The notes under the pieces were generated by a model that worked only from the letters and a program-made list of their open reading frames with translations, was not told the origin of the DNA and did no database searches. This document shows, piece after piece, positions 3,284 through 25,742 of a stretch of 63,842 nt of DNA. Source of the stretch: an uncultured Gammaproteobacteria bacterium (GTDB taxonomy: Bacteria; Patescibacteriota; Microgenomatia; Levybacterales; GWA1-39-11); the NCBI GenBank assembly GCA_964557125.1, contig CAZKYX010000001.1:1-63842 (forward strand), read 5' to 3'. Position 1 is the stretch's first letter, and each line of letters begins with the position of its first letter. The position numbers and the translations under genes are program-made.

Positions 3284-5566
3284 CTATTTTGACCAAGTAA
3301 ATTTTGCAACAGCCTGTCCTTTATTTTCGTAATACTGAACAATAATTGTATGTACGCCTTGTGACATGTATTTCGTGAAGGTTCTTGTAGAAGCTCCCTG
3401 ATCTTTCCAACTATTGTAAACGGCCGTCCCATCTATATACACTCTCATCCCGTCGTCGTTACTTACGGTAAATCTATAGTAGCCCGATGTAAAAGACTGA
3501 TTTTTAGTCCACCTGACAGAAAACGCGTTGGAATTAATTTTTGGATCCGGTGAGTTTGCTCCCCAGTTAAAATTAATCGTACTGTCATCTCTTATGAGTG
3601 CTGGAACACCAATTAAGCTCGAATTATTATAGTATTCGCCTTTAAAGCCAAGAATTTGAACACTGGTTGGTGTAGGGGTTAGCGTTGGAATAAAAGTAGG
3701 AGTAGGGGTAGGAGAGGGTGAGCGAGTTGGAGTGGCTGTAGGAATTGGCGATGGGGTCATCGTAGCCGAAGGTGTGTTGAGGGGAATAGAGGTTGGAATA
3801 GGTGTTGAAGTGGGTAATAACGTTGGAGTTGGCGATTGCGTTGATGCTGTTGGCGTAAGAGTTGGCAGCGAATGCATGGAAGCCATAACTGCGTCAAAAG
3901 ATGATTTCTTAGTGCCGTCAGTACGTAGTATGCCAAAGGTTCCTTCACAGAGACCACTTGAAGTTGATTCATCCATGATTTCGTAGAGAATTATTAGTTT
4001 AGCTGTTGAGAGCTTGAGACTATTTACAGATTTTGTTACATAATTCTCCTGATCTGCTTCTGTGTATGTGCCTGGAAGTGTGCAAGTTCCTGTTTCTGCA
4101 ACTGCAACATCCTTTGAATAGCGTGTTTTTAAGTCGTCAACACGTGAACCTAACTTAGCAATTTCTATTAAATCTGGAGTTGGATACATATCAACTGACA
4201 ATATGTCCAGATTATCTTTTAGACTATCAAAGAACTGGTACCATTTCTGGACAGTAGCATCATTCATTGGGTAACCGCTGACGTTTGCAGTAATAAGAGC
4301 ATTTGAGTCATTTGTTTTAATAACGTTTTTAGCTATAGCTATCAGACTATTCAGATCTGACAAATATGCAGGTGAAGTTGTAGTAAGAGCTGAGTAATCT
4401 CTGAAGTGATGGGTATCGGCCTCATTAAATATTTGCCATATTTCCACTTTTCCCGTGTATCTTTTGGAAAGGTAATCATAGAACTGGTTAACAACACTTT
4501 TATAATCATCAATCGTATAATTTTTAGCGAATGCTGGTGTATTGGTAACTAGAAATACTTTTAACCCTTTGCTCCGAGCATAGTCTATCGCTGTGTCATA
4601 TATGGCAAGATTTGTATTATTCCACAGTATTGCATCTGATGAGATCCCCTGAACGCTCTGAACAGTTGATGTTCCTGCTGTAAGATCTGCTATGACAGTG
4701 GTTGTTTTATTTTCAGAAATAGATATTTGTGTTGCGGTTGGTATTTTTGGAGTTTGTCCATTCACCGAAATAAATGGGTACACATACGTGAGTGTGTAAT
4801 TTCCAGCTGGTAATGGTGTCCAGTCAACGCTCCATGTTTTTTGAAGTACTGTTTGCCCTGCTGTATCTGCGACGGTTATTGTTGCTTCAGCCGCTGGAAT
4901 TGTTTGTACTCTCAAGAGTCCCGATAATGGATTTGGCGTGATGGTTTCTGTGCCCTTTGTAAGATCGCTAACCACTACAGTAGTCTGATTTGAATATACT
5001 GTGATGTTTTGTGGTTGTGGTATTGCTACAGGTAGACCATTAATTGTATTGTGAGGATAGGTATACTGAATTGTATATTTTCCAACCGGCAGACTAATCC
5101 AGTCAACGCTCCATGATTTTTGATGTACAACTTGCCCTGAAGGGTTTTTGACAATTATTGTCGCTTCAGCTGCTGGATTTGTTTGTACTCTTAGAAGTCC
5201 AGGATTTGCTGAGGGTGTTGGAGTTGGTGTGGCTGTTGGAATTGTATTTGGAGCTTCAGCTGCTACCTCAAAATCAATAATATTAAAACGAATCCATTTT
5301 TGACCGTTTGCAGCTAGAGTGTCAACGTTAGATTTGAATGTATTGATATCAAGGTTGTTATTTGCTGCAGAAACATGCGTATTAAAGCCGAATTCTGTTC
5401 CGACGGTTCCTGATGCACGTTGTCGAAGATCCTGTCTTTGAGTGACTAAGAAGAAGGTTACCCCAATCCCTACAGCCATTAAGGCTAGAAATAAGTATGA
5501 TTTTGAATTTTTTAAATTCGTTCGAATTTTTTGATAAAGACTAGTTTCGAGAATAACTCTTACCAT
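3284..5566 (-). CDS. exported clan GH-A (GH5-like) glycoside hydrolase with two PEGA-like Ig repeats and a C-terminal PA14 domain
   Basis: IWQIFNEAD (acid/base NE) and VAVAETG (nucleophile E) motifs. Two ~95-aa LLRVQT.PAAEATI repeats. C-terminal GFKGEYYNN...YRF...DDGMRVYIDG fits PA14. TM plus [11 protein letters not shown] box. The ORF extends to GTG 5602; ATG 5566 preferred. Confidence 0.75.
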   Translation of the reverse strand: MVRVILETSLYQKIRTNLKNSKSYLFLALMAVGIGVTFFLVTQRQDLRQRASGTVGTEFGFNTHVSAANNNLDINTFKSNVDTLAANGQKWIRFNIIDFEVAAEAPNTIPTATPTPTPSANPGLLRVQTNPAAEATIIVKNPSGQVVHQKSWSVDWISLPVGKYTIQYTYPHNTINGLPVAIPQPQNITVYSNQTTVVVSDLTKGTETITPNPLSGLLRVQTIPAAEATITVADTAGQTVLQKTWSVDWTPLPAGNYTLTYVYPFISVNGQTPKIPTATQISISENKTTTVIADLTAGTSTVQSVQGISSDAILWNNTNLAIYDTAIDYARSKGLKVFLVTNTPAFAKNYTIDDYKSVVNQFYDYLSKRYTGKVEIWQIFNEADTHHFRDYSALTTTSPAYLSDLNSLIAIAKNVIKTNDSNALITANVSGYPMNDATVQKWYQFFDSLKDNLDILSVDMYPTPDLIEIAKLGSRVDDLKTRYSKDVAVAETGTCTLPGTYTEADQENYVTKSVNSLKLSTAKLIILYEIMDESTSSGLCEGTFGILRTDGTKKSSFDAVMASMHSLPTLTPTASTQSPTPTLLPTSTPIPTSIPLNTPSATMTPSPIPTATPTRSPSPTPTPTFIPTLTPTPTSVQILGFKGEYYNNSSLIGVPALIRDDSTINFNWGANSPDPKINSNAFSVRWTKNQSFTSGYYRFTVSNDDGMRVYIDGTAVYNSWKDQGASTRTFTKYMSQGVHTIIVQYYENKGQAVAKFTWSK

Positions 5567-5682
5567 GATTGATAATTTCAACGTAACACAGTAAAAGTGC
5601 ACGTGTCAATTGCTATTTGCCTCAAGATTCAATTTTTAGTAAAATAACAGTCTAGTTTAAGTTTTTACTCATGTGAAAGCAT

Positions 5683-8780: not shown

Positions 8781-9854
8781 TTATAGTGCCAGTAATAGTA
8801 TTCCTCCAATTATTGCAAGGAGAATTCCACCAAAGATTCCCAGTGTTTGTGCCATAGAACCGCTTGGTGCAAGTGTAGCAGTAGGCGTGTTTGTTGAAAT
8901 TGGTGTCATTGCTGTGGTTGGTGTAGCGCTCTCAGAAGCAACTGCCGTAACCGTCGGGGTGAGCGTAGCAGTTGCAGTGGGGGTAAGCGTTGCCGTTGGG
9001 ATAAGAGTGGCTGTGGGGGTTAGTGTCGGTGTAGCTGTTGGAATTGCTGTAGGAGTTGGTGATGGTGTAGGTGTTTTTGTAGGAGTTGGTGTTGGCGTTC
9101 TTGTTGGAGTAGGGGTTGGTGTGTGAGTTGGGGGAGGTGTTACAGTTGGGGTGGCGGTGGCAGCTGTTGTGACTGATGGTGTTGTTGATATGGTGGGTGT
9201 TGCCGTTGGAGCTGTTGTTACTGTGGTTGTGGGGGTAGCAGTTGGAATCTCTGTTACTGATGGGGTTGGTGTCATTGTAACTTCTGTATCTGGCGAATCA
9301 CCAAAGTCTGCTGTCCAAAACCAACTCGTGCCACTACCTTTGACCCGAGAAATACCAACGACAGCTCGAGATGATCTTTCCATTTCTTCTTTGTGTCCAA
9401 GCTTTGATGCAAGCCACGCATCAAATGCACTCTGACCAGTTCCTCCAACAACATAAGCAATGTTTTCACCTGCTGCACCAGAATATCCAAACGCTGGAAG
9501 TCTTGATTGGAGTCCGCGCCCAAGTGAATCGGTGTGGTCGAATCTGTCGTTTGTATTCATATCCTCAGACATCCACGTTGCTGCTTTAGTAAGCTTCAAG
9601 GATACCTTAAGTTTTTGCTTGCCGAGACTTTCTCTATGAGTATTTAAAATTTCCAAAAAATTCCATTCTTCTTCATCAAGCGTAATTTCCGGAGTTGGAG
9701 TAGCTGTTGGGGCAATTGTGGTCGGTGTAGCTGTAGGTGTTGGCTCACTGGCCCTTTGACGTAAATCTTGTTGTTGACGCACTAAATACACCAGAATAGG
9801 AAGCGAGATGAGAACGAGTGCAATAACAGTGTAAATAAGATATTTTTTCTTCAC
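8781..9854 (-). CDS. CAP/SCP (cysteine-rich secretory protein family) domain protein with very long PT linker and C-terminal hydrophobic tail
   Basis: 357 aa. TM plus [11 protein letters not shown] box. CAP-like core (LNTHR...[12 protein letters not shown]...AWLASKLGH). ~150 aa of TPT repeats. Ends [30 protein letters not shown]. Confidence 0.8.
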
Positions 9855-10357: not shown

Positions 10358-10716
10358 AAGAAGAACGAGAAGAATTTAGAAAAGACGAAAGCGGCTATAA
10401 CGAATCGCAGTCTGATTTGCAGGCAGAAATTGGTGCTGGTGAGTGGCAGCGTCTCATTGAATTTCCTGCGTACCAGAATCGTTCACGGCAGGGGAGAATT
10501 ATTGCTATGTATCAAGCAGTTTCTAATCGTCTTACGCAGCTTGTTTCACTTTACTATCAATATGTTAGAAACAACCCTCGCGAAGCAACAAAGATGCTTG
10601 CAGAGCTTAAAAAACTGCGAAAACTTCAGGAATTTTTATTGAATAGTCTTACGTGGGAACAAAAAGGAGAAATGGGCCAACACGAATTGCCTGATGAATT
10701 AAAAAATATCCTCTAG
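10354..10716 (+). CDS. hypothetical helical protein (120 aa)
   Basis: ORF 10312..10716; start chosen at ATG 10354, which overlaps the upstream stop. Confidence 0.5.
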   Translation: MKEEREEFRKDESGYNESQSDLQAEIGAGEWQRLIEFPAYQNRSRQGRIIAMYQAVSNRLTQLVSLYYQYVRNNPREATKMLAELKKLRKLQEFLLNSLTWEQKGEMGQHELPDELKNIL

Positions 10717-11129
10717 CGAATACTATTCGGAATAATTTTTGAAGTAGGTGAGGCGCCGCCCAGAGGGTTCTGCTCGACGGGTGACAGAGATACGCTTGGG
10801 GATGCAGTTGGTGTATTGGTTGGTGAGAGGAATGGAGTTGGGGAAGGTATAACTTGGGTGGGGAATCTTTTGATTTCAGAGGCTCTTTGCCTATTATCCT
10901 GACTTTGATTGAGTTGTGAAATGGTGATTGGTAATACGAGCAGTGCCAAGGCTATAGCTCCAAATGGCAGTAATTTTCCTCCATTAAATTTAAATCCGCC
11001 TCCGCCTTTTTCTTCATTTTGAGACTGTTTTGGAGACTGCCCACCCGGTATTGGATTTTGAATAGTATTATTAAAGCCAATTCGTGGTGCGAGAGGTCCG
11101 TCAAAAGGAGAATTTGATTTTGGTTCCAT
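10713..11129 (-). CDS. small membrane protein with QSQDNRQRAS box and PT tail
   Basis: 138 aa. Gly-rich N-terminus, one TM, the box, then a PT-rich tail. The C-terminal PVEQNPLGGA is encoded by a REP copy. Confidence 0.55.
   Translation of the reverse strand: MEPKSNSPFDGPLAPRIGFNNTIQNPIPGGQSPKQSQNEEKGGGGFKFNGGKLLPFGAIALALLVLPITISQLNQSQDNRQRASEIKRFPTQVIPSPTPFLSPTNTPTASPSVSLSPVEQNPLGGASPTSKIIPNSIR
10752..10781 (+). repeat. GC-rich REP element (diverged copy) inside a CDS
   Basis: GGCGCCGCCCAGAGGGTTCTGCTCGACGGG. Same family as 16706, 30366 and 36315. Confidence 0.75.
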
Positions 11130-11171: not shown

Positions 11172-11837
11172 TTATTGTGTAGGGGTACTGGAAGTAAAAG
11201 GAACAGCAGTTGGAGCGAAGGTTTTTGAGAGCTTTATAGTAAGTGGTACTGTTTCTTTAAGAATGGACTCTTGGGTTGAAAGAGTTGTTGCAACGGATTT
11301 AGGAAGAAATGTCATCTCAGTTGTTGCCTGAACCGTAGAAGGAGCGACATTAAATGTAAGGGTGGCAATTTTACCAACCCCCGAGACTTCGGCATCTGAG
11401 AGTGAAATTCCCATCGCGTATGATATTCGCCCTTGGGCAATATCAACGGATTTTATGAGTACTTGTGATGAATTTGGGAATAGTGGAGTATTTGTTTCAC
11501 CGACAATTCCGGTTCGTGCAGGAGTTATGGTTACATTTGTTATGAGTTTTGGGTCATATGAAAGTTCTGCTTGGATTGTCGAAACAGGTTTTCCACTTGT
11601 ATCTACCATGATATCAACACTTACAAGGTTTGAAGTTGCAGACGCCATATCAAGCGTTACTGGGGAGAAGTAGATTTTGGTGGAAGGCGCAACTGTTGGG
11701 GCTACGGTTACAGTTGGTTCTCCGAGATTTTTGAGATTTAACTGACTATTTCTGCTAGATAAAGCTAAGAATACAAGCAGAGCAGTAACGACTGCAAGAA
11801 CAATGATAAGAACTGTTGTTTTTTTAGGTAAATTCAT
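11172..11837 (-). CDS. membrane-anchored cohesin-like domain protein
   Basis: 221 aa. N-terminal TM. VSVDIMVDTSGKPVSTIQAELSYDPKLI ... GVGKIATLTFNV fits the cohesin sequence pattern. Confidence 0.7.
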   Translation of the reverse strand: MNLPKKTTVLIIVLAVVTALLVFLALSSRNSQLNLKNLGEPTVTVAPTVAPSTKIYFSPVTLDMASATSNLVSVDIMVDTSGKPVSTIQAELSYDPKLITNVTITPARTGIVGETNTPLFPNSSQVLIKSVDIAQGRISYAMGISLSDAEVSGVGKIATLTFNVAPSTVQATTEMTFLPKSVATTLSTQESILKETVPLTIKLSKTFAPTAVPFTSSTPTQ

Positions 11838-11943
11838 ATTTCTTAGAATTAAGTATATAGAATAAAGAATAAAGTATTCAATACATATAAAATAAAATTC
11901 TTTTCATAATACTTAATACTTTATTCATATTTCATTATTCTAA

Positions 11944-13356
11944 TTAGTCTCCTTCAACACTTAAGAATGCATTGACGATAATTGCGTTATCAATAATATC
12001 AAATTCCCCATTATCATTGAAGTCTGCAAGAACTTTCTGTTCTGCTGTGCATGATTCTTTCCCTTGATAGCAGGCAACAAAGAGGTTGTAGTCAAGCGTA
12101 TCCATTCTGTTATTGCGATTAAGATCCCCGAGTATAAGAGTTCCTGTATTGATAACAACAGTTGGAGCACCAGCTTCTAAATAGACAATTCCAGGAACTT
12201 GCTTCCATAGTGAATTGTCAAACCTGATTTTTACAAGCACGTTTCCTGTAGCGTTAATTGGAACACTTATCACACGATTGTAAGCAAATAATTCACTGCT
12301 GTATGTTGCGTTTCCACTCACTGTATATACAGGCTGGTCACTTCCCTGTTTGAATATTGCTATATCAGTTGCAAATCTGCTTGGATGCTTTGGATCCGGA
12401 TTATTGTTGTTATTTGATGTTTTTTCTCCAATGCCCGGTAGTTTGGTGACTAGAGATATCGAGGCCTGTCCTGGAATAGGTGTAGGTGTTGCCGTTGGTG
12501 TTTTTGTTGGAGTTGGGCTAGAGAAGACCGTTGGGGTAGGCGTATTGCTTGGGGTCGGACTTATATAAGCCGTTGGTGTAGGCGTATTTGAAGGAGATGG
12601 TGTTGGGGTAATGGTTGGAATTACAGTTGGGGTAATACTTGGGAAAATTGTAGGTGTCGTGCCAAGTGTTACACAGTAACCGGCATCATTTCCTGTAACA
12701 ACTTGTCTACAAGTTTGGGAGGCGCATTCTGCATCTCTATAGCATTGACATCCATTCACCATATTTACTCCACTTCTACAATCAGGTGTCGGTGTCAACT
12801 GACCGTCAATTGTTATGTTCGTTTCAATAGTAGATGTATTAGCAATAGGTACATATTCCTTATATCCCGTTGCGGTGAATAGAACGTGCAATGTAACTTT
12901 TCCTATTCCTTGTTTTTTTGCTATCAAAATGAGCTTTCCAAGACTAACGGTATCTCCTGTTACTGGAGTTATTGTTGTGTTAGTGCCGATAAATGTGACG
13001 CTGCCAATCTTATTCACGCCCGGAGAAGCGATAGGGAGAAGAGTAGCTTGAGAGAAATCTACATATTCAAACAAGCCATCTGAAATTGCTTTGCTAAAGT
13101 CAATAGTTCCAGATACTGCTCCCAAATCATTACTCCCTGCTTTTACTTTGATATTCACGGCTATTTGATCTCCAACTTTCACAACAGAGGAAGAGGGTTC
13201 AAGCGTTACTGTAACAGGAGGTGCGCTACTTGCACGCGAGCGAGACTCTTGGCTCCTTTGAACTTGATACAGGGTTACGGCGATGGCACCAAGTAGAACA
13301 AAAGCCCCAATTATGAGGAAAATAAGTCGTTTGCCTTGAGTTAAATTTTGCAACAT
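11944..13356 (-). CDS. cohesin-domain plus dockerin-domain protein
   Basis: 470 aa. TM plus QRSQESRSRAS box. Cohesin-like VKVGDQIAVNIKVKAGSNDLGAVSGTIDF. Cys knot, PT linker. C-terminal dockerin pair GDLNRNNRMDTLDYNLF and ADFNDNGEFDIIDNAIIVNAF. Confidence 0.8.
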   Translation of the reverse strand: MLQNLTQGKRLIFLIIGAFVLLGAIAVTLYQVQRSQESRSRASSAPPVTVTLEPSSSVVKVGDQIAVNIKVKAGSNDLGAVSGTIDFSKAISDGLFEYVDFSQATLLPIASPGVNKIGSVTFIGTNTTITPVTGDTVSLGKLILIAKKQGIGKVTLHVLFTATGYKEYVPIANTSTIETNITIDGQLTPTPDCRSGVNMVNGCQCYRDAECASQTCRQVVTGNDAGYCVTLGTTPTIFPSITPTVIPTITPTPSPSNTPTPTAYISPTPSNTPTPTVFSSPTPTKTPTATPTPIPGQASISLVTKLPGIGEKTSNNNNNPDPKHPSRFATDIAIFKQGSDQPVYTVSGNATYSSELFAYNRVISVPINATGNVLVKIRFDNSLWKQVPGIVYLEAGAPTVVINTGTLILGDLNRNNRMDTLDYNLFVACYQGKESCTAEQKVLADFNDNGEFDIIDNAIIVNAFLSVEGD

Positions 13357-13357
13357 A

Positions 13358-14350
13358 TTATCTTAATTTTGCTAAAAACATATCCTTCCATCCTTGAAAG
13401 TCGCGAAGATCAATGAGACTATCTGGGTGATAACAGTCTGATTTAAGTCCACCTGAGCCAAGCATTTCACCTACCCATATGCCATAGTCCAAAAGGTCTC
13501 CGGTTATTCCATCGAGATTTGGATCGCAGACTGCTGGGGTAGGTGTTGCGGTTGCAAGAATTGGGGTCGGAGTATTCTGCGGTGTTGCAGTTGGTGTACT
13601 GGAAGGAGTAGGGAGGGGGCAAATTTTATGTGAGGAGCAGACATTTTGAAGATTAAATTGCCAAGTTCTTTCAGATTCGCATCTAAAACTCGCTGTTTTT
13701 GTAACAACAAAGCCGTCGTTACAAGTTACGGTAGCTGCTTTTGCATCATAACTTGGAACGCAGCCTGTTTTGTCATATTTTATAGATTTAATTCCGCTAG
13801 ACGAGCAGGTCGTGCCATTTGTATCTGTTGTATTTGGGAGAGGAGTAGGAGTTGCAGCGGAAGTCGGTGTAGGACCGTTTGTTGTTGGAGTTGGTAGGTT
13901 AATAACATTGCATGTCTTAGGGGTTTGTATACCTAAAGTTCCGCAAATTTGAATATTTGGGGTTTTGATACATGTGCCTCCTTGTGTCGTTGCAATTGTG
14001 CCTGTCGGACAAGTACAGCCAAGAATGGTTGATTCTGGAAGACCAGAGCAGCATACAATTTGCTGAGCAGAATCAGGGCTTTGCCCTTGATATGCACACT
14101 CGGCTCTGTATGGATGAGTCCCTGTGCAGTAGGGTTGTGTTGTGCCAATGGGACCTGGACCAAGACAATAACCCGTCTGCTGACCCATGGTGCTCGAGCT
14201 TACTGGTTGCTGCACGCAACATCTTGTGTCACCTCCGCAAGCCCCAGTTGTTGTACAGGTCTGTGCCTGAGCTGAAACATAACTGGTTTTGGTTAGGAAA
14301 ATCGAAAAGAGTAGTGCGAATACAAAAAATATTTTTTTCAATAAAGACAT
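13358..14350 (-). CDS. secreted Cys-rich protein with C-terminal dockerin-like repeats
   Basis: 330 aa. Cleavable signal peptide (SYVSAQAQ), more than 30 Cys. C-terminal DPNLDGITGDLLDYGIW and HPDSLIDLRDFQGW. Stop lies 1 nt from the next start. Confidence 0.75.
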   Translation of the reverse strand: MSLLKKIFFVFALLFSIFLTKTSYVSAQAQTCTTTGACGGDTRCCVQQPVSSSTMGQQTGYCLGPGPIGTTQPYCTGTHPYRAECAYQGQSPDSAQQIVCCSGLPESTILGCTCPTGTIATTQGGTCIKTPNIQICGTLGIQTPKTCNVINLPTPTTNGPTPTSAATPTPLPNTTDTNGTTCSSSGIKSIKYDKTGCVPSYDAKAATVTCNDGFVVTKTASFRCESERTWQFNLQNVCSSHKICPLPTPSSTPTATPQNTPTPILATATPTPAVCDPNLDGITGDLLDYGIWVGEMLGSGGLKSDCYHPDSLIDLRDFQGWKDMFLAKLR

Positions 14351-18806: not shown

Positions 18807-19130
18807 TCAAATAGGACTTCTTGTCGGAGTGGGGGTAGGGGCAACTTCTCCTGATTCCTCAAGTTTTAAATCAGTAATTTGAAGATTTTTTTCATTTGAT
18901 GTATTTGTCGTATTGTTGGGAGCCGCGTAATGAATTTTGCTATCAACAATATCTGACTTTGGAGGAGAGAATATGCCAGACCACACAAGAACACTAAGCA
19001 TAAGTACTACAACAAAAATAACTTCAATCATGGAGAAGCCTTTTTCATTCCGCAGAGCGGAATGAAAAGAATTAAGTATTAAGAAGTAAGTATTATGGTG
19101 AAGTTTTGAATTCTGTTTTAATTTTTTCAC
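18807..19130 (-). CDS. type IV prepilin-like protein (class III signal, G|FSMIE)
   Basis: 107 aa. KGFSMIEVIFVVVLMLSVLV has Gly-1, Phe+1 and Glu+5. GTG start, with an unusually long 31-aa leader. Confidence 0.6.
   Translation of the reverse strand: MKKLKQNSKLHHNTYFLILNSFHSALRNEKGFSMIEVIFVVVLMLSVLVWSGIFSPPKSDIVDSKIHYAAPNNTTNTSNEKNLQITDLKLEESGEVAPTPTPTRSPI
19042..19068. repeat. perfect 12-bp palindrome with a 3-nt loop, inside the prepilin leader-coding region
   Basis: TTTTCATTCCGC-AGA-GCGGAATGAAAA read directly. Confidence 0.85.
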
Positions 19131-19173
19131 TAATTAATTGTAGGTAGGGAGGGTTAAAAAAGTCAAATGTTTG

Positions 19174-19833
19174 TTAGGGTGAAAGTTTTACGTCAAGGGT
19201 TGCTTGGGAGAGTTTTAATTTTGTTTGTATTCCATCCTTAAGAGTATATACATTTGAATTTTGAAGGTCGTACAAAAGCTGTGTAGTCACCGAAGTGTTG
19301 AATGAAACAGGGGTGAAGGTAAGTTGTGCTATTCTTCCTTTACCCTTTATTGGTTTTGCGCCATCTGGCAATTTAAAAGTTATCGTTACATTAGATGGAT
19401 TGTACATAATGCTTAAAAATTCTGTCTCAATAGGGAGAAGTCCCGTGTCTCCTGTAACGGGTGACACTCTAATGTTTTTAACCTGATTCAAGTCGTATTT
19501 AAGAATAATAGTACCTCCAGAAATGCCTTCGTTTTCAAGTGTTTGGATATTGAGGTCAACGGTCACAGGTTGATTTTCCTTTGTAACCAAATTCAGTACT
19601 GAGAATCCAAGCGAAACTTTTACGTGTTGCGGATTATCAATATTATCAACCAAAGGGGCAATTTTGGTTTTTATGGAGGTCTTGCCTTTAAATCCAAACG
19701 TTAAAAGAAGAAAGGCTATAAGAATTGCAGCGACAACAAGACTAATAGCTATAAGGAGTTTTTTATTAAGTCCCTTTTTTTCAGGAACTTGTGGAGCTTC
19801 TTGTTCTGGTTGTTGGGGCAGATTGTTTTCCAT
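19174..19833 (-). CDS. membrane-anchored cohesin-like domain protein
   Basis: 219 aa. N-terminal TM. VTVDLNIQTLENEGISGGTIILKYDLNQV ... GKGRIAQLTFTPV follows the cohesin pattern. Confidence 0.65.
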   Translation of the reverse strand: MENNLPQQPEQEAPQVPEKKGLNKKLLIAISLVVAAILIAFLLLTFGFKGKTSIKTKIAPLVDNIDNPQHVKVSLGFSVLNLVTKENQPVTVDLNIQTLENEGISGGTIILKYDLNQVKNIRVSPVTGDTGLLPIETEFLSIMYNPSNVTITFKLPDGAKPIKGKGRIAQLTFTPVSFNTSVTTQLLYDLQNSNVYTLKDGIQTKLKLSQATLDVKLSP

Positions 19834-19836
19834 ATG

Positions 19837-21105
19837 TTATATTGACTGGCAGAATGCTTCGGTTGCGCCAGAAGGTTTTATACAGTATCCACCACACCCT
19901 GAGCATTGGTTATTTGTACCAGTTACTGTATTTTTTGAGGTATCGCAAAGTCTTCCTGAAACTTGGCAAGAAGAACCAGCTCCACTTTGATTGGCAATTG
20001 GCAATTGGCAACACGTGTAGCCGGTTTTGTCTTTCCCTCCGCTATAAAAAAGAGAGCAAGATTCTGAAGCTAGCGCATCGGGATTTTTGACAGCTCCCCC
20101 TGAGCAAGTTGTTCCAGAAGAGCAAATTTGACTCACAGTACCACTGGAAGTTTGTATAGAGTCATTGCATGTGCCACTTGTTGCAATTGGTGTTGGGGAA
20201 GTTATCGGTGCGGGAGTTCCTGTTGTAACCGGTGCAATGCATGTATTTGCGCTTATGCTCCAAACAAATCCATTTCGGCAGCACACTCCAGTAGCACATG
20301 ACGCTGAAAGTGAGCTACAAGACTGTGCACAGTAATTTCCGCTAACACACTGCCACGGTCCTTGAGAAGGTACACAAGCCTTACCTTCTCCGATTGGAGT
20401 GTATGGAGTGGGAGTTGGAGTTTTGGTGGGGGTGGGTGAGCCACTTACAACAGCTGTTGGACATTTATAAAAATATGGCTGAAGACCCCCTGATGCGCCT
20501 ACACAGTATGAATTCTTAAAATCTGAGGCAGTACTTTTTACCCACTCAGCAGAGGCTTTTGAGCATGGAGGAGTCGTGCCAGCTGGGACAGGAAGCATTT
20601 TGGAGGTATCAGGACCATCATCACCGCAGTACCCAATCTCACCTGTAGCAGGTGTCGGGGATGCACCTGATGCTCCCGGTGATGGGGTCGTTGTTGTTAC
20701 TGGCCCAACAACTGGATTCAGAATTTCAATTGTTTGATTGTATGTATAGCTTGTGTCTGATGCTCCCGGTTCTATAATATCTGACTGGTGTGTATGGACT
20801 ATGGATCCGTTTTCACTCACCATAATTTTTATCCAGAACGAGGTAGGCTTTGTATTTAGTTCGACAGAAGCCCCGTTAGCAAAATTGGAAGAAAGAGGTG
20901 TATTCGTTGCCGCGTCCATAATGGTTACTATTACAGAGGGGTATGTTTTTGCAACACCACTTGAGGTGGTTTTTGCCTTAACGGTAATAGTATAGGCACC
21001 TTGTGCGAAAGCTTGAAAATTTTGTGAAATGAGCAGAGCAATGACAGTGAAAGAGAGAATGAGAATAAGGGACAAGGAGCGAACTAATTTCATGGTAGTA
21101 ATCAT
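19837..21105 (-). CDS. secreted Cys-rich protein
   Basis: 422 aa. Signal peptide (QAFAQG), N-terminal beta-rich region, PT linkers, several Cys modules including GYCGDD...YFYKC. Stop is 3 nt from the next start. Confidence 0.7.
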   Translation of the reverse strand: MITTMKLVRSLSLILILSFTVIALLISQNFQAFAQGAYTITVKAKTTSSGVAKTYPSVIVTIMDAATNTPLSSNFANGASVELNTKPTSFWIKIMVSENGSIVHTHQSDIIEPGASDTSYTYNQTIEILNPVVGPVTTTTPSPGASGASPTPATGEIGYCGDDGPDTSKMLPVPAGTTPPCSKASAEWVKSTASDFKNSYCVGASGGLQPYFYKCPTAVVSGSPTPTKTPTPTPYTPIGEGKACVPSQGPWQCVSGNYCAQSCSSLSASCATGVCCRNGFVWSISANTCIAPVTTGTPAPITSPTPIATSGTCNDSIQTSSGTVSQICSSGTTCSGGAVKNPDALASESCSLFYSGGKDKTGYTCCQLPIANQSGAGSSCQVSGRLCDTSKNTVTGTNNQCSGCGGYCIKPSGATEAFCQSI

Positions 21106-21150
21106 ACTATAAATAGTAGATGAGCTTCTGTCAATTTTAATGCAATGACA

Positions 21151-21780
21151 TTAATAATATATGGTGAGTGGTTGCGAGGTGAGCTTAACTGATTTTCCAT
21201 TTCTTGTCACAAAATATGATTTTTCTGAAATGGATATTGTTGGATAATTTTTGGGAGTGAGATTTTTTATTGAAAAGGTTAGTGCGCCAATACTTGCTTT
21301 TCCTGTTTTTTCACCAATGTCATCAGGAAGAACCAGCGATATAGTAGTTATCCCCTTTGTGTTGTCCACATTCATCTGTGCGATTTTTACATAGTTCCCA
21401 AAGAATGAGAAGTTGGAATTGTTAAGATTGAAATTATTTACTTCAACAAATTGTGGGTCATACTCAAAATTGATGAATGTTCCTGCAAGCGGGGTGTTGC
21501 TTTCAATAATAACATCAACTGTTTTTTGACCTGATGGGGCATTGAGTGAAAATGCATCTGCAAGAAAAGAAATTTTGCCACTTCCAGTTTGTGTTGAGGA
21601 AGCTTGCTCCTGTGTCTCCTTAACATTTTTAGGTTTAGGACCAACGCTAAAAATAATAGCAGTCAGGATAACGAGGAGAAGAATAGCACCTATTGTAGCG
21701 TAAAATATTTTACTCCTCTTTAGTTTTTCAAAAGCAGTTAGGTCTGTTGATTGACTTATGATTTGTTGATTTTCTTCCAT
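21151..21780 (-). CDS. membrane-anchored cohesin-like domain protein
   Basis: 209 aa. N-terminal TM. VDVIIESNTPLAGTFINFEYDPQFV ... GKASIGALTFSIKN. Confidence 0.65.
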   Translation of the reverse strand: MEENQQIISQSTDLTAFEKLKRSKIFYATIGAILLLVILTAIIFSVGPKPKNVKETQEQASSTQTGSGKISFLADAFSLNAPSGQKTVDVIIESNTPLAGTFINFEYDPQFVEVNNFNLNNSNFSFFGNYVKIAQMNVDNTKGITTISLVLPDDIGEKTGKASIGALTFSIKNLTPKNYPTISISEKSYFVTRNGKSVKLTSQPLTIYY

Positions 21781-21786
21781 ATATCG

Positions 21787-23406
21787 TTAAGGGTTGGCCC
21801 AGCAATAATCAGACCCTGTACAAGGGTGAAGTTGTCCCCAGCTTACTTTCCCAGGATGTGTGTTAGGATATGATGAATCTCCACAGACCCCGCCTTGCTC
21901 CGCGCAATTTTTTGGACCTACCCAGCAATATGATGATTGGCAAGGAGCGAGTGGTCCCCAGCTTTTAGCGTTTGGATGAGTATCTGGGTAACTTGTGTCG
22001 CCACAGACTCCATTGTGATTTGCGCAGGTATCTGCCACTGTTGGAGTAGGTGTTGCGGGTACAGGTGTGGCGGTTGGACCGGAGCCCGTACACATACAGC
22101 CGGTAGTTGAATTGGCGTTACTCTTGCAAGTAGTCAAAGCACCCGCACAGCCTCCATATGTTGTTGATGGACACTCGTATCCTGTTTTTATGGCACTTGG
22201 ATTTGGAGTTGCGCACCCAAATCCAGGAGTCACAGGAGTTGGAGAGATGGTTGTAGATGGTGAGGGGGTTGTGGTGGGAGTTGCAGTTGGGGTAGTGCAT
22301 TTATAGAAATAGTTGGATTGACTATCATTTACTCCATAGTTATCAACGCACCACTTATCATACGTACTGTCACTGCTTGTGTTGTTAATTCCACACGTTG
22401 CACTATTAATAGTAACGGGGTTGCTGGTTCTTGATGCATTTGCACAGTATCCAGGGGAGAGGGGTGTTCCTGTACCTGCACACTCATAATAGTTGTCAGT
22501 TGGACTACCAAATGTAGCATTGCAGTAGTCATCATATGTACCATTGTAGAATGCTGAATTTATACTACAGGTGCTCGAAAGGACAGGTTTTGCATTTCCC
22601 CTCAAGTCATCCGCACACCACCCCGGTTTGGTGGGTGGAAGGGGAGTGGGGGTAGGTGTGGCTGTAGCACTGCTTGGTTTTGGTGTTATTGTGCTTGTAG
22701 CGGGTGTGGGACTGCCCTTTGGATCGCTTACGGTATCCTTAACACAGCAGATTGGAGTTTTGGTTTTGAATGTATCGGCAGCATCAACATAATGTGTGTC
22801 GGTGGGACAAGTCAAACTGCTTAAATATTTTACACCGTGAAGATCATGACATGTATTATATCCAGATAAGGTGAAATTAAAGTCTCCTACTACGGTATTT
22901 GATGATATTTCGATATAGCAAGTAGTATTTTTCTTGCATGTAGTTGAAACGTAATCGTAGTCCAGATACTGTCCCTGTCTTATTGGCCAAACCACTAGCT
23001 TATATTCACCATTACTCAAAACACGGTCATATGTATTGATGTTCGTATTATTTGGTGGTAATAGCTCCGAATATATAGGGGCGTTACTCGTTTTTGTGTA
23101 GATATTTACTTGCACGCCATCGTACCTAATTCCTCCTGTATTAACTGTGATAGTACCCTTCAGCCTTCCAGAGCCTGTATTTGTAAGGCATGTTACGCAG
23201 CTCGATGATGAATAGGCACAGATTTCTCCAGCTTTGTTACAAGAGGTGACTATACTACCATTATTCAGAATTGCATCTCTTTCTTTATTGCATTCATAAT
23301 TCAATGCACCAGAATCACAATACTGAGTAATTGCATAGGAATTTGAAACGAGTGCTGAAGTAAAAAATAATATGGTAGAGATGAGGATTCCCAGTAATAA
23401 TTTCAT
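21787..23406 (-). CDS. secreted Cys-rich protein
   Basis: ORF extends to 23634, but Met77 (23406) begins a clean signal peptide, MKLLLGILISTILFFTSALVSNSYA, 10 nt after the upstream stop. Two GxC..DD...Y(F/Y)Y(K/E)C modules and a duplicated C-terminal GVCGD(T/S)SYP.THP...SWG.L.PC...YCW module. Confidence 0.7.
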   Translation of the reverse strand: MKLLLGILISTILFFTSALVSNSYAITQYCDSGALNYECNKERDAILNNGSIVTSCNKAGEICAYSSSSCVTCLTNTGSGRLKGTITVNTGGIRYDGVQVNIYTKTSNAPIYSELLPPNNTNINTYDRVLSNGEYKLVVWPIRQGQYLDYDYVSTTCKKNTTCYIEISSNTVVGDFNFTLSGYNTCHDLHGVKYLSSLTCPTDTHYVDAADTFKTKTPICCVKDTVSDPKGSPTPATSTITPKPSSATATPTPTPLPPTKPGWCADDLRGNAKPVLSSTCSINSAFYNGTYDDYCNATFGSPTDNYYECAGTGTPLSPGYCANASRTSNPVTINSATCGINNTSSDSTYDKWCVDNYGVNDSQSNYFYKCTTPTATPTTTPSPSTTISPTPVTPGFGCATPNPSAIKTGYECPSTTYGGCAGALTTCKSNANSTTGCMCTGSGPTATPVPATPTPTVADTCANHNGVCGDTSYPDTHPNAKSWGPLAPCQSSYCWVGPKNCAEQGGVCGDSSYPNTHPGKVSWGQLHPCTGSDYCWANP

Positions 23407-23416
23407 ATTTATAAAT

Positions 23417-23992
23417 TTAACATCCGGTTGCGTCGCCGCCTTTTGTCGTTTCAAGCTTCCCTCCTGTAAATATACCACTTGCGTCCTTAGTTCCGCCAGA
23501 GTAAAGAAGGAGTTGCCATTTTTTTGTATTAAATCCAGAATAGTTGCGAAGGGTAAGATCGTATGTGCTTGACGTGGCGACAAAAGGCTTTGATGTACCA
23601 ACATTGGTGAACGTACCCGGAGTTGATGATTCAACCTGAATCTGTATATAACCGGCTACTGATCCGGTTGCTGTAATTGTTCCTTTTTTTACCCGCGTTG
23701 TATCCTCCGGCTCGCAAGCTCCAAGCGTATAGGTTAGTTCCCATTTTGCGGCAGGAGCAACGCCAGTAGTTGGTGCTACACCACCAACGGGCGTTGGGGT
23801 AAGTGTCCGGTAGGTAGCTTTTGTCCCTTCAAGACTGAAAGAACCTGTGACAATAAGTACGCTAAATATAAATACAACGATAATCACCCACGTTACCATG
23901 GAGAAGCCCAGCTCGCCTTGATTAGGTTGCGGGTTGCGGGTTTTAGGTTTTAGGTTAGGAAAGAATTTCGGAGTTATTTTTTGTTTTTTCAT
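23417..23992 (-). CDS. type IV prepilin-like protein (G|FSMV)
   Basis: 191 aa. GELGFSMVTWVIIVVFIFSVLIV, but Thr rather than Glu at +5. The leader region is encoded by a heptad array. Confidence 0.55.
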   Translation of the reverse strand: MKKQKITPKFFPNLKPKTRNPQPNQGELGFSMVTWVIIVVFIFSVLIVTGSFSLEGTKATYRTLTPTPVGGVAPTTGVAPAAKWELTYTLGACEPEDTTRVKKGTITATGSVAGYIQIQVESSTPGTFTNVGTSKPFVATSSTYDLTLRNYSGFNTKKWQLLLYSGGTKDASGIFTGGKLETTKGGDATGC

Positions 23993-24094
23993 TAATTAAT
24001 TGTAGGGTGAGAGGGGAAAAGAAGTCAAATAGGATAGTAATCAGGAAACAATAAGCAATAAACAAAAAATGGCTAGATACCTAAGTGGATTCAA

Positions 24095-24260: not shown

Positions 24261-24593
24261 TTAGTTTTTGCGTTCTAAGACTTTCAAACGTTCGTGGTTA
24301 TCTACATCTAGTTTCAGGCGTCTTGATTGGTCTGTACCAACTTCATTTTCAACCTGCCAGTCTTCTAGGATTTTTAGAATTTTATCTTGGGTTACTGAAA
24401 ACTTCTCGAACTTTTCATCGTTTTTCATCCACTTTTCATCTTGTTCCTCCCACTTTGATTCTTGAAAATCTGATATGTCTTGAACCACCTGTTGAAAATC
24501 TTTTTCAAGCTCTTGTTTAAATTCTTTAAACCCTTTATCAAGAACTTTGTCGAGCACGGCTTCTGTTATTGGTTTGTCAATTTTTTGTTTCAT
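24261..24593 (-). CDS. hypothetical acidic coiled-coil protein
   Basis: 110-aa ORF, charged heptad-like composition, no recognisable motif. Confidence 0.5.
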   Translation of the reverse strand: MKQKIDKPITEAVLDKVLDKGFKEFKQELEKDFQQVVQDISDFQESKWEEQDEKWMKNDEKFEKFSVTQDKILKILEDWQVENEVGTDQSRRLKLDVDNHERLKVLERKN

Positions 24594-24761: not shown

Positions 24762-24957
24762 CAAATCATATTATTTTAATTCGTTACATTGTCTTGTTGC
24801 AATTTTCTTTAGGTTACAGCCGCAAGAAAATAGCAAATCATATTATTTTAATTCGTTACATTGTCTTGTTGCAATTTTCTTTAGGTTACAGCCGCAAGAA
24901 AATAGCAAATCATATTATTTTAATTCGTTACATTGTCTTGTTGCAATTTTCTTATAG
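24762..24957. repeat. 72-bp tandem repeat, 2 perfect copies plus a 47-nt third copy
   Basis: Copies start at 24762, 24834 and 24906. Copies 1 and 2 are identical. Copy 3 is the 3' end (last ~13 codons plus stop) of the vWA gene. Confidence 0.95.
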
Positions 24958-25742
24958 ATATCCTTCAACTCTGCTCCAGTTGGAGTTGAGAACATGGTTT
25001 CAGGGCCTGTTGCAATGGTTCTCATTACATCAGGAAAAGCATCCGCACCAATGGCAATGGTATAGACCGTTACTCCAAGAGCTTTTATTTCATCAGCTGG
25101 ATTCGGTACTGCTGCATTGGGATATTGTGAGTTGGGATCTTTGTTGCTTCCGTCAACCGGTCTTCCGTCTGACACGAAGATGTAGGAAAATTGTTTGTCA
25201 GGATAATCCGTGACTGCTTTCTCAAGGATTGTTTTTGAAAAGAAAAGTGCGTCTCTGGTTGGGGTTGCATCCCGTGGGGTTAAGGCGGAAATCTTGGCGG
25301 CTACTTCTGCTTTTACGTCTCCGTATCGGCTCACTTTTACCTCCTCAACGCGTGCAATTGTATCAAACGAATGAATACCTATTATTGACTCATCTGATAG
25401 ATTGGATGTATAGCCTAAAGCAGCTTCCTTTAAGCTAGCCATTTTAGTAATTGGATTTCCCATGGAGCCTGAGCGATCAAGCATCATAACGGTAGCAGAG
25501 GTCTGCGAGCACTCTTTAAATTTAATGGTACGCAGTTGTAGTCCTCTATCGCCTTCAGCGGAAGGCTCTTCGACAATAACTTCAATGTCCCCAGTCTCCC
25601 CCGGATCTGAAAGGGTAGATTTTGGAAGAACACCGCGAGTGAGAAGAACAGCAGCGCCAACTGCAAGAAGAATAAATGCTAGTACCATGAATTTTGCAGA
25701 TACTAACGAAACTGTAGGAGCAGCCACAACTTTACGACCCAT
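24915..25742 (-). CDS. von Willebrand factor type A domain protein, membrane anchored
   Basis: MIDAS motif MLDRSGSMG. N-terminal TM. Start moved to ATG 25742, which sits 6 nt after a TACAAT box. Confidence 0.8.
   Translation of the reverse strand: MGRKVVAAPTVSLVSAKFMVLAFILLAVGAAVLLTRGVLPKSTLSDPGETGDIEVIVEEPSAEGDRGLQLRTIKFKECSQTSATVMMLDRSGSMGNPITKMASLKEAALGYTSNLSDESIIGIHSFDTIARVEEVKVSRYGDVKAEVAAKISALTPRDATPTRDALFFSKTILEKAVTDYPDKQFSYIFVSDGRPVDGSNKDPNSQYPNAAVPNPADEIKALGVTVYTIAIGADAFPDVMRTIATGPETMFSTPTGAELKDIYKKIATRQCNELK

Follow-up and report, generated by a model that had tools for sequence, protein, structure and literature searches.

Candidate cohesin-based surface display cluster with paired genes for cysteine-rich and membrane-anchored cohesin proteins in a rare Curtissbacteria-related lineage

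Genetic Organization of the Cluster

The window analyzed here, i.e., the whole 63,842-nt stretch of contig CAZKYX010000001.1, harbors a cluster of six genes (g1–g6) in which two genes for cysteine-rich, predicted secreted proteins are each followed by a gene for a small transmembrane (TM)-anchored cohesin. The coordinates, lengths, and strands, taken from the open reading frame (ORF) listing of the window, were in agreement with an earlier annotation of this DNA (the original prediction), which had described six co-directional minus-strand genes with the same sizes and spacings. In the list below, a slash marks the position after the conserved Gly.

g1: 23417-23992, minus strand, 191 aa, ...GELG/FSMVTWV...
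g2: 21787-23406, minus strand, 539 aa from the ATG at 23406, predicted Sec-secreted Cys-rich modular protein
g3: 21151-21780, minus strand, 209 aa, N-terminally TM-anchored divergent cohesin (sequence cluster 1)
g4: 19837-21105, minus strand, 422 aa (probably 418 aa), predicted Sec-secreted Cys-rich modular protein
g5: 19174-19833, minus strand, 219 aa, N-terminally TM-anchored single cohesin (sequence cluster 2)
g6: 18807-19130, minus strand, 107 aa from GTG, ...NEKG/FSMIEV...

The open frame of g2 extends to a TTG at 23634, and the ATG at 23406 gives the 539-aa form with the signal MKLLLGILISTILFFTSALVSNSYA. The intergenic gaps from g1 to g6 are, in order, 10, 6, 45, 3, and 43 nt. The Cys-rich genes had been predicted to stop 3–6 nt before their cohesin-like partners, and the measured distances were 6 nt (g2/g3) and 3 nt (g4/g5). 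A Shine-Dalgarno-like sequence was not found before g3 or g5, which, along with this close spacing, suggested translational coupling; termination–reinitiation coupling of the Cys-rich and cohesin genes is thus plausible. Both pairs are mutually in frame in the window, and an in-frame read-through fusion of the Cys-rich protein with the cohesin was also considered but was rejected, as the corresponding gaps in the relatives are 2, 8, 12, and 19 nt. The order of the genes is not a matter of chance, since the same six genes are present in a related locus, L005 (52% identity in g4), and the core of the cluster in at least nine further genomes.

Cohesin Fold of the Small Transmembrane Proteins

A Pfam search placed g5 in the Cohesin family (PF00963) with 24.5 bits against a cut-off of 24.1, and h3, a TM-anchored relative encoded elsewhere in the window, scored 24.2 against the same cut-off. 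Among the cohesin-family members in alignment A1, 13 of the 16 matched Pfam Cohesin (best 2.7e-9), and g3 aligned end to end with the whole family. Relatives from L018 and L031 scored 6e-10 and 2.7e-9, respectively. An exhaustive HMMER search with the g5 domain retrieved just 14 related clusters from 1.84 billion representative proteins, most of them 180–233 aa in length. A search of the PDB with the single g5 sequence returned only noise; with the profile of the cohesin family, the best matches were mostly cohesins, and the top one covered the full domain (E∼1e-3).

Structural modeling of g5 by AlphaFold2 (AF2), using 14 sequences, gave a predicted local distance difference test score (pLDDT) of 95–97 across residues 70–219 and an N-terminal helix at residues 24–46. 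The top 46 matches of this model in the PDB, as identified by Foldseek, were all cohesins (best E = 1.8e-10, TM-score 0.76), with target-normalized TM-scores of 0.65–0.78, and included the cohesins of the anchoring scaffoldins OlpA and OlpC as well as a non-cellulosomal cohesin of Archaeoglobus fulgidus. The nine-stranded β-sandwich (jelly-roll) fold of cohesins was thus confirmed for g5, on whose model the check was carried out. The earlier description of the 209- and 219-aa TM proteins as cohesin-like is upheld by these matches, and it is almost certain that the small TM proteins have the cohesin fold. Each cohesin protein of the cluster carries one cohesin module, g3 and g5 are devoid of Cys, and the two barely align with each other by BLASTP.

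Cysteine-Rich Partner Proteins

The Cys-rich proteins g2, g4, and h1 (the last encoded in a second cluster of the window) contain 34, 24, and 22 Cys residues, respectively, amounting to 6.3%, 5.7%, and 6.7% of their residues, as against 0% in the cohesin-like proteins. No Pfam or NCBIfam family was matched by g2 or g4, and they are hence considered to lack a glycoside hydrolase or other enzyme domain. Alignment A3 showed that g4 consists of four small conserved Cys modules separated by proline/threonine (PT) linkers. Conservation in the g4 family was 0.1–0.2 over the first ∼140 aa, which are swapped for other modules in distant members, and 0.5–0.64 in the last 60 aa, which hold the motif GSSC..R.C.T..N...GTN.QC.GCGGYC. 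The g2 protein also contains PT linkers, and its C-terminal end is formed by a tandem ∼38-aa Cys repeat. By BLASTP, g2 and g4 had little in common beyond the linkers; jackhmmer revealed that they do share Cys modules, including a "GYC.DD...YC...Y.Y.C" module present in two copies in g2.

Both families are narrowly distributed. A search of 5.8 billion proteins retrieved five relatives of g4 beyond itself; the family was absent from 185,579 GTDB species genomes and was detected on four short contigs in the JGI metagenomes. An ortholog of g2 was seen only in L005. The possibility that the two cassettes stem from a recent duplication was rejected, as g2/g4 and g3/g5 are barely alignable and as a single g4–g5-type cassette occurs in L054, L006, L009, L011, and L012. 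Judged by their sequence divergence, the paralogs (g2/g4 and g3/g5) are old.

Association of Cohesin Genes With Their Upstream Neighbors

A second cluster of predicted surface proteins in the window served as an internal control.

h1–h3 (second surface-protein cluster): 11172-14350, minus strand
h1: 13358-14350, minus strand, 330 aa, Cys-rich
h2: 11944-13356, minus strand, 470 aa, TM anchor and C-terminal dockerin
h3: 11172-11837, minus strand, TM-anchored cohesin (sequence cluster 3)

The h2 protein scored 22.6 against the Pfam Dockerin_1 cut-off of 22.9 and 6e-32 with a lineage-specific hidden Markov model (HMM) built from C-terminal dockerins of the same lineage. The dockerin, a duplicated Ca-binding EF-hand-like segment, is thus present as the partner feature in the control pair h2–h3. 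The original prediction had extended the Cys-rich/cohesin geometry to the h1/h2 junction at 13358/13356. The close spacing holds, the gap being 1 nt, but h2 could not be confirmed as cohesin-like (hhalign probability of 3.9% for its N-terminal domain) and instead carries the C-terminal dockerin. The C-terminal ∼55 aa of h1 ("DPNLDGITGDLLDYGIW...DSLIDLRDFQGW") resemble, by eye, a divergent two-repeat dockerin; neither Pfam nor the lineage dockerin HMM detected a dockerin at this end.

All small TM-cohesin genes with a visible upstream neighbor in the window and the fetched loci were tabulated (n = 19), and every one of them was found to come directly after a co-directional gene. The upstream gene ended in a g4/g2-type Cys tail in 11 cases, with gaps of 2–19 nt (two negative values among these pairs are artifacts of choosing the longest ORF), and in a dockerin in the remaining 8, with gaps of 18–106 nt. 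Average-linkage clustering of 20 cohesin domains resolved three groups that exactly matched the type of partner tail, i.e., g5-type cohesins with the g4 tail, g3-type cohesins with the g2 tail, and h3-type cohesins with the dockerin. Identity within a group was 0.40–0.43, and that between groups was about 0.20. As a natural positive control, the dockerin pairs, among them those with VWA, SdrD_B, and Dockerin_1 proteins, allow the adjacent gene to be read as that of the binding partner, and on this basis the g5- and g3-type cohesins would have the Cys-rich tails as their ligands.

Functional pairing of the Cys-rich protein with the TM-cohesin is highly probable, and the earlier view of fixed pairs agrees with the tight spacing, its retention across genomes, and the 11 Cys-tail cases. 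Direct binding of the Cys-rich tail to the cohesin, to which the 19 adjacencies and the agreement of cohesin clusters with tail types point indirectly, is a proposition that could fall either way. That the g5- and g3-type subfamilies have switched their ligand from a Ca-binding dockerin to small disulfide-knotted C-terminal modules is put forward tentatively and is somewhat less probable than its opposite.

Conserved Core and Distribution of the Cluster

The original prediction had missed a conserved upstream gene encoding a VWA protein, which is the first gene of the cluster in the relatives.

VWA surface protein: 24915-25742, minus strand, 275 aa from ATG, Pfam VWA (PF00092), 5.3e-11

The VWA protein of the window has an N-terminal hydrophobic anchor and an intact DxSxS motif (LDRSGSM) of the metal-ion-dependent adhesion site (MIDAS) type. 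In L006, L009, L011, L012, L054, and L069, the VWA gene is located directly upstream of the g1-family gene, whereas in the window the two are separated by a 110-aa ORF and a perfect tandem repeat (72 bp × 2.7). The ORF (24261-24593, minus strand) encodes a highly charged protein, coiled-coil by eye, without a family match, and it looks like a lineage-specific insertion since the VWA and g1 genes are adjacent or overlapping in L006, L009, and L054. The 72-bp repeat (24762-24953; 2.7 copies at 100% identity) overlaps with the 3′ end of the VWA gene and has a promoter-like TTGCAA-18-TAAAAT in every copy. Public contigs of the organism in many cases start ∼0.8–0.9 kb upstream of g1 and do not include the VWA gene, suggesting that assemblies may break near the repeat.

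Scanning with the g4 family having yielded nothing in GTDB and only the four short JGI contigs, the adjacent serine hydroxymethyltransferase (SHMT) gene, glyA, was used as the handle for synteny and taxonomy, and related loci were found by exact-protein look-ups and by the scan with this gene. All six genes, together with the second cluster, are present in L005. A single cassette is present in L006/L007, L009/L010, L011, L012, L054, L062, L067, and L069, usually between rpsB/tsf and glyA. The order VWA, g1 family, g4 family, and g5-type cohesin is maintained in all of these loci except L062, in which two VWA genes come after the cohesin gene rather than before the g1-family gene. The g1 family is kept upstream of the Cys-rich gene in at least nine genomes. 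As the jackhmmer profiles of VWA and g1 drifted into each other through their hydrophobic N-termini, cross-matches were ignored unless confirmed by Pfam. By sequence and synteny, the conserved core of the cluster is a VWA protein, the 191-aa family, a Cys-rich protein, and a TM-cohesin, adjoining glyA. The g2–g3 cassette is an addition specific to the lineage of the window and L005, and g6 is likewise present only in these.

In a more distant relative, L065 (3-1982), a Cys-rich tail is followed by a TM-cohesin (2-nt gap) and a second g4-family Cys-rich gene, which indicates that multi-cassette arrays either arose more than once or are ancestral. At the position of g6, L011 and L012 encode a 327–336-aa protein with a "QG/FINIV" N-terminus, and L064 encodes a 126-aa "KG/FSAIG" protein followed by a member of this same 327-aa family. 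The family (327–343 aa; L011 8254-9237, L012 8310-9320, L064 1194-2177, and L018 13747-14778) has a hydrophobic N-terminal anchor, preceded by QG/F in L011, and a conserved C-terminus (...GFTAVEWGG...); no Pfam or NCBIfam match was obtained for it. Its gene follows the cohesin gene in some genomes and adjoins the VWA gene in L018.

The nearest named relative of the SHMT is that of Candidatus Curtissbacteria (68% identity), and the closest genomes (78%) are metagenome-assembled genomes labeled "uncultured Gammaproteobacteria." The lineage is a rare, Curtissbacteria-related one within the Microgenomates of the Candidate Phyla Radiation (CPR). The SHMT in the "uncultured Gammaproteobacteria" records L011, L012, L018, L021, L025, and L027 resembles that of the window, as do the genes around it in L011, L012, and L018, and the label is apparently wrong.

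N-Terminal Features of g1 and g6

The six-gene region had been described as bracketed by two prepilin-like genes, a description that was weakly supported. The g1 protein consists of a ∼29-aa basic leader, a Gly, a ∼22-aa hydrophobic helix, a PT-rich linker, and an all-β domain of ∼110 aa. Alignment of the g1 family (A4) showed an invariant Gly before the hydrophobic segment and two conserved Cys residues, the last of them being that of a C-terminal TGC. The +1 residue varies (F, Q, or D), and Glu5 is absent. No pilin profile of Pfam or NCBIfam was matched by the family (six members and P0022), nor was a pilin in the PDB matched by sequence, and a protein homolog search with g1 returned itself and one relative only. 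The AF2 model of g1, built from three sequences and of low confidence (mean pLDDT 55.6), comprised a helix at 32–49, a disordered stretch at 50–81, and an all-β region at 84–184; with Foldseek, it gave weak, generic β-sandwich matches only. Hence, the N-terminus of g1 is pilin-like, and the assignment of the protein as a prepilin is unproven.

In g6, a 31-aa leader and the G/FSMIE motif are followed by a hydrophobic helix and then by a polar tail of ∼55 aa, the C-terminal end of which is PT-rich; the protein contains no Cys and no globular domain. It scored 18.4 with TIGR02532 (cut-off 16.3) but fell 0.1 bit short with Pfam N_methyl (PF07963; 21.1 against 21.2), and its ortholog in L005 scored 13.8 with TIGR02532, below the cut-off. 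On sequence grounds, g6 is the best prepilin-type candidate of the cluster and a possible pilin; its absence from most relatives goes against a pilin bracket as a feature of the cluster. The N-termini of g1 and g6 are homologous, and the leader of P0022, a g1-family protein, resembles that of g6. A crude regular-expression check of the ORFs in the window and the fetched loci did not detect the PilB/PilT-type Walker A motif G[PSQ]TGSGK[ST].

Promoter-Like Elements and Transcription Units

Three promoter-like elements were identified in the region.

Promoter-like element: 23993-24029, minus strand, TTGACT-18-TACAAT, 6 nt to the ATG of g1
Promoter-like element: 19131-19167, minus strand, TTGACT-18-TACAAT, 6 nt to the GTG of g6
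Promoter-like element: 21106-21134, minus strand, TTGACA-17-TATAGT, 11/12 matches, directly before g4

A near-identical 37-nt element, TTTGACTT.TTTT..CCTC.C..CCTACAATTAATTA, abuts the start codons of g1 and g6 (two matches as against zero expected by chance) and can be read as a -35 box TTGACT, an 18-nt spacer, a -10 box TACAAT, and 6 nt to the start. This short distance from the -10 box to the start codon implies leaderless mRNAs, which are likely for g1 and g6, the one for g6 beginning with GTG. An automatic gene caller places the start of g6 at an internal ATG (74 aa), which would delete the G/FSMIE motif; the long GTG form is favored as the conserved promoter abuts this codon. The element before g4 is the stronger one, and the true start of g4 is probably M5 (ATG at 21093), the residue at which the homologs of g4 begin. 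The region had been taken for a single operon; the three elements divide it into three units, viz., g1-g2-g3, g4-g5, and g6, and it is thus a cluster rather than one operon.

Proposed Mechanism and Alternative Explanations

A role in surface display or adhesion, as suggested in the original prediction, remains the most reasonable reading in view of the cohesins and the conserved pairs. It is proposed that the locus is a conserved cell-surface display/adhesion cluster with the two-gene cassette as its working unit, the Cys tail docking on the TM-cohesin, a proposal that we hold with about as much confidence as doubt. In each cassette, a Sec-secreted, disulfide-rich modular protein (g2 or g4) would be co-produced with a small protein (g3 or g5) comprising an N-terminal membrane helix, a tether of ∼22 residues, and one cohesin module, and translational coupling would provide the two in matched amounts. 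After export, the conserved C-terminal Cys tail may plug non-covalently into the cohesin, in the fashion of a dockerin in an anchoring scaffoldin, which would hold the secreted protein at the membrane. The PT-rich linkers would then carry the variable N-terminal head outward through the envelope, where it could reach a ligand that would most probably be present on a host cell or a surface. The VWA protein and g1 would be further membrane-tethered surface components of the same module, to which the lineage of the window appears to have added the second, diverged cassette (g2–g3) and the small prepilin-like g6. The combination of variable head and conserved tail in the g4 family is as found in dockerin-bearing proteins and supports the docking, although physical binding, topology, and adhesion function are inferred. 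The strong promoter-like elements ahead of g1 and g4, as well as the short gaps within each cassette, are also in favor of the proposal.

Certain observations weigh against this proposal. On its own, g3 reaches no Pfam threshold. No Dockerin_1 was found in g2 or g4 by Pfam at E ≤ 1, nor any dockerin by the lineage-specific HMM, and to our knowledge every characterized cohesin ligand is a dockerin-type module. Signal peptides, cleavage, and membrane topology were assessed by visual inspection and, in one case, from a helix in the AF2 model (that of g5), and the roles given to the VWA protein and g1 are deduced solely from their co-location. Further, the match between cohesin cluster and tail type could simply reflect vertical inheritance of syntenic blocks, which would give the same pattern, and the tail as ligand is to that extent inferential.

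The dependence of known cohesins on dockerins would be accounted for if the TM-cohesins bound canonical dockerin proteins encoded elsewhere, such as those of the h2 type, with the Cys-rich neighbors merely co-regulated or requiring the cohesin for help in export or folding. The occurrence of a dockerin protein in the same genome (h2) and the lack of dockerins in g2 and g4 are consistent with such an arrangement. It is, however, unlikely, as the cohesins of clusters 1 and 2 are only ∼20% identical to the dockerin-adjacent cluster 3, none of the 11 lies beside a dockerin gene as against all 8 of cluster 3, and their 2–19 nt spacing to the Cys-rich gene is tighter than that in the dockerin pairs. 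It could also be argued that there is no functional complex at all and that the pairing is a historical accident of a narrow lineage, the region adjoining glyA being a rapidly evolving island in which unrelated secreted and membrane proteins are encoded. The tiny size of the g4 and g5 families and their absence from the GTDB representatives, the strong divergence of the paralogs, and the local instability evident from the perfect tandem repeat and the inserted ORF could be explained in this way. The order VWA, g1, Cys-rich protein, and cohesin is nevertheless retained at protein identities as low as ∼35% and SHMT identities as low as ∼62%, and the Cys-rich/cohesin unit has been duplicated (window and L005), is found with a second Cys-rich gene behind it (L065), and occurs outside the canonical order (L062), which makes a mere accident very improbable.

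Alternatively, g1 and g6 could be true type IV (pseudo)pilins, processed by a prepilin peptidase and assembled by type IV pilus machinery into a fiber, with the cohesins and Cys-rich cargo as its adhesive load. The TIGR02532 match and G/FSMIE motif of g6, the homologous leaders and hydrophobic segments of g1 and g6 along with their near-identical promoters, the invariant Gly of the g1 family, and the (K/R/Q)G/F... N-termini on the 327-aa and 126-aa proteins at the g6 position of relatives, as well as on some VWA proteins, are in favor of such a fiber. Type IV pili are also documented in cultivated Saccharibacteria, another CPR lineage (PMC10633639). Several features nevertheless make a pilus quite improbable. 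The g1 family has neither a profile match nor Glu5, and its +1 residue is variable. The helix of g1 is parted from the β domain by a PT-rich disordered linker of ∼30 aa, unlike the α-β roll of pilins (low-confidence model), and g6, which most relatives lack, is devoid of a globular domain. Each of the cohesins is anchored by its own TM segment with an N-terminal cytoplasmic tail instead of a pilin N-terminus, and the regular-expression check gave no PilB/PilT-type ATPase motif in the ORFs covered.

Cohesin–Dockerin Network and a Q-Rich Motif in Related Genomes

The lineage dockerin HMM identified dockerins on 14 proteins in the fetched loci, several of which were confirmed by Pfam. In L024, these include proteins with the Pfam domains VWA, SdrD_B, and Dockerin_1, whose domain make-up suggests that they are adhesins. 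A fuller gene-adjacent cohesin–dockerin network was observed in related Patescibacteria (L024 48-6284, L025 2200-5631, L022 956-2188, L031 18136-20265, and L011 12485-15284). It includes small TM-cohesins and proteins of ∼400 aa that combine a match to the cohesin profile with a C-terminal dockerin, Pfam Cohesin being confirmed only for the one in L024. In the dockerins of the network, two Cys residues are conserved in the linker between the repeats.

A Q-rich motif, QxQDxRQRA(S/D), was found directly after the N-terminal TM helix in many predicted surface proteins. It is present in six genes of the window, all on the minus strand (283-933, 1221-2063, 3284-5602, 8781-9854, 10713-11129, and 11944-13356), and also in L006, L011, L012, and L031; a GH53/PA14 protein, a CAP-domain protein, and h2 are among its bearers. 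The motif may serve this lineage specifically as a signal, hitherto undescribed, for sorting or processing.

Significance and Comparison With Known Systems

CPR bacteria (Patescibacteria) are thought to live attached to other cells, and the mounting of their adhesins is mostly not understood. The present data suggest a rule for Microgenomates, whereby the gene for a held protein is immediately followed by that for its small membrane-anchored cohesin. Should the Cys tails bind the cohesins, cohesin biology would extend beyond dockerins to a previously unknown class of cohesin partner, and CPR bacteria would own a family of orthogonal pairs, each a plug and socket encoded by neighboring genes, by which variable adhesin heads could be mounted on the membrane. 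Such pairs would be new orthogonal protein–protein connectors, and the VWA protein, g1, g2, and g4 would be candidate adhesins for work on host attachment. If there is no binding, the locus would still be a useful, though ordinary, case of lineage-specific surface proteins.

A full-text literature search yielded no account of small TM-anchored cohesin genes directly downstream of presumptive partners in CPR, nor of a cohesin subfamily that regularly has Cys-rich proteins without dockerins as its partners. The one mention found for CPR concerns a cultivated Saccharibacterium, in which one protein with a dockerin domain is essential (PMC10633639). The original prediction, which knew of no described system uniting type IV pilin-like subunits, cohesin modules, and Cys-rich cargo, had overlooked the non-cellulosomal cohesins and dockerins. 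Such modules exist in both bacteria and archaea, in organisms that do not degrade cellulose, and a part in surface assembly or cell–cell adhesion has been put forward for them (PMC9012536, citing Peer et al., 2009). The ANME archaea are among their bearers (PMC9012536).

With respect to type IV and modular pilins, the G/FxxxE motif and hydrophobic helix of g6, the basic leader, Gly, hydrophobic helix, and C-terminal Cys pair of g1, and the VWA protein co-encoded in the cluster are points of likeness. VWA domains are carried by the pilus adhesins PilY1, TadG, and Streptococcus sanguinis PilB. Unlike type IV pilins, g1 has no Glu5 or profile match and has a long disordered linker in place of the packed α1-C; moreover, no assembly genes were seen nearby by the regular-expression check, and the downstream gene is not conserved.

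The cassette as proposed is also close to the anchoring scaffoldins of cellulosomes (e.g., Clostridium thermocellum OlpA, OlpC, and SdbA; type I/II cohesin–dockerin), in which a tethered cohesin holds the C-terminal tail of a secreted partner. The g5 model superposes on the cohesins of OlpC and OlpA (4dh2 and 3ul4) and on other type I cohesins with TM-scores of ∼0.7–0.77, and in the partners of both systems a functional head that varies is combined with a C-terminal tail that is conserved. However, the anchor in the present cluster is an N-terminal TM helix and not SLH domains or a sortase link, and the partners of the g cassettes have a disulfide-rich tail in place of the Ca-binding dockerin. 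They also differ from cellulosomal partners in not being glycoside hydrolases, and a single cohesin is present per protein, with no multi-cohesin scaffoldin. As to the non-cellulosomal systems, the cohesin of A. fulgidus (2xdh) ranks 26 among the structural matches of g5, and the pairs h2–h3 and those in L024 and L031 are of the same kind. The locus would thus be a non-cellulosomal cohesin display, differing from the described systems, in a rare Curtissbacteria-related lineage.

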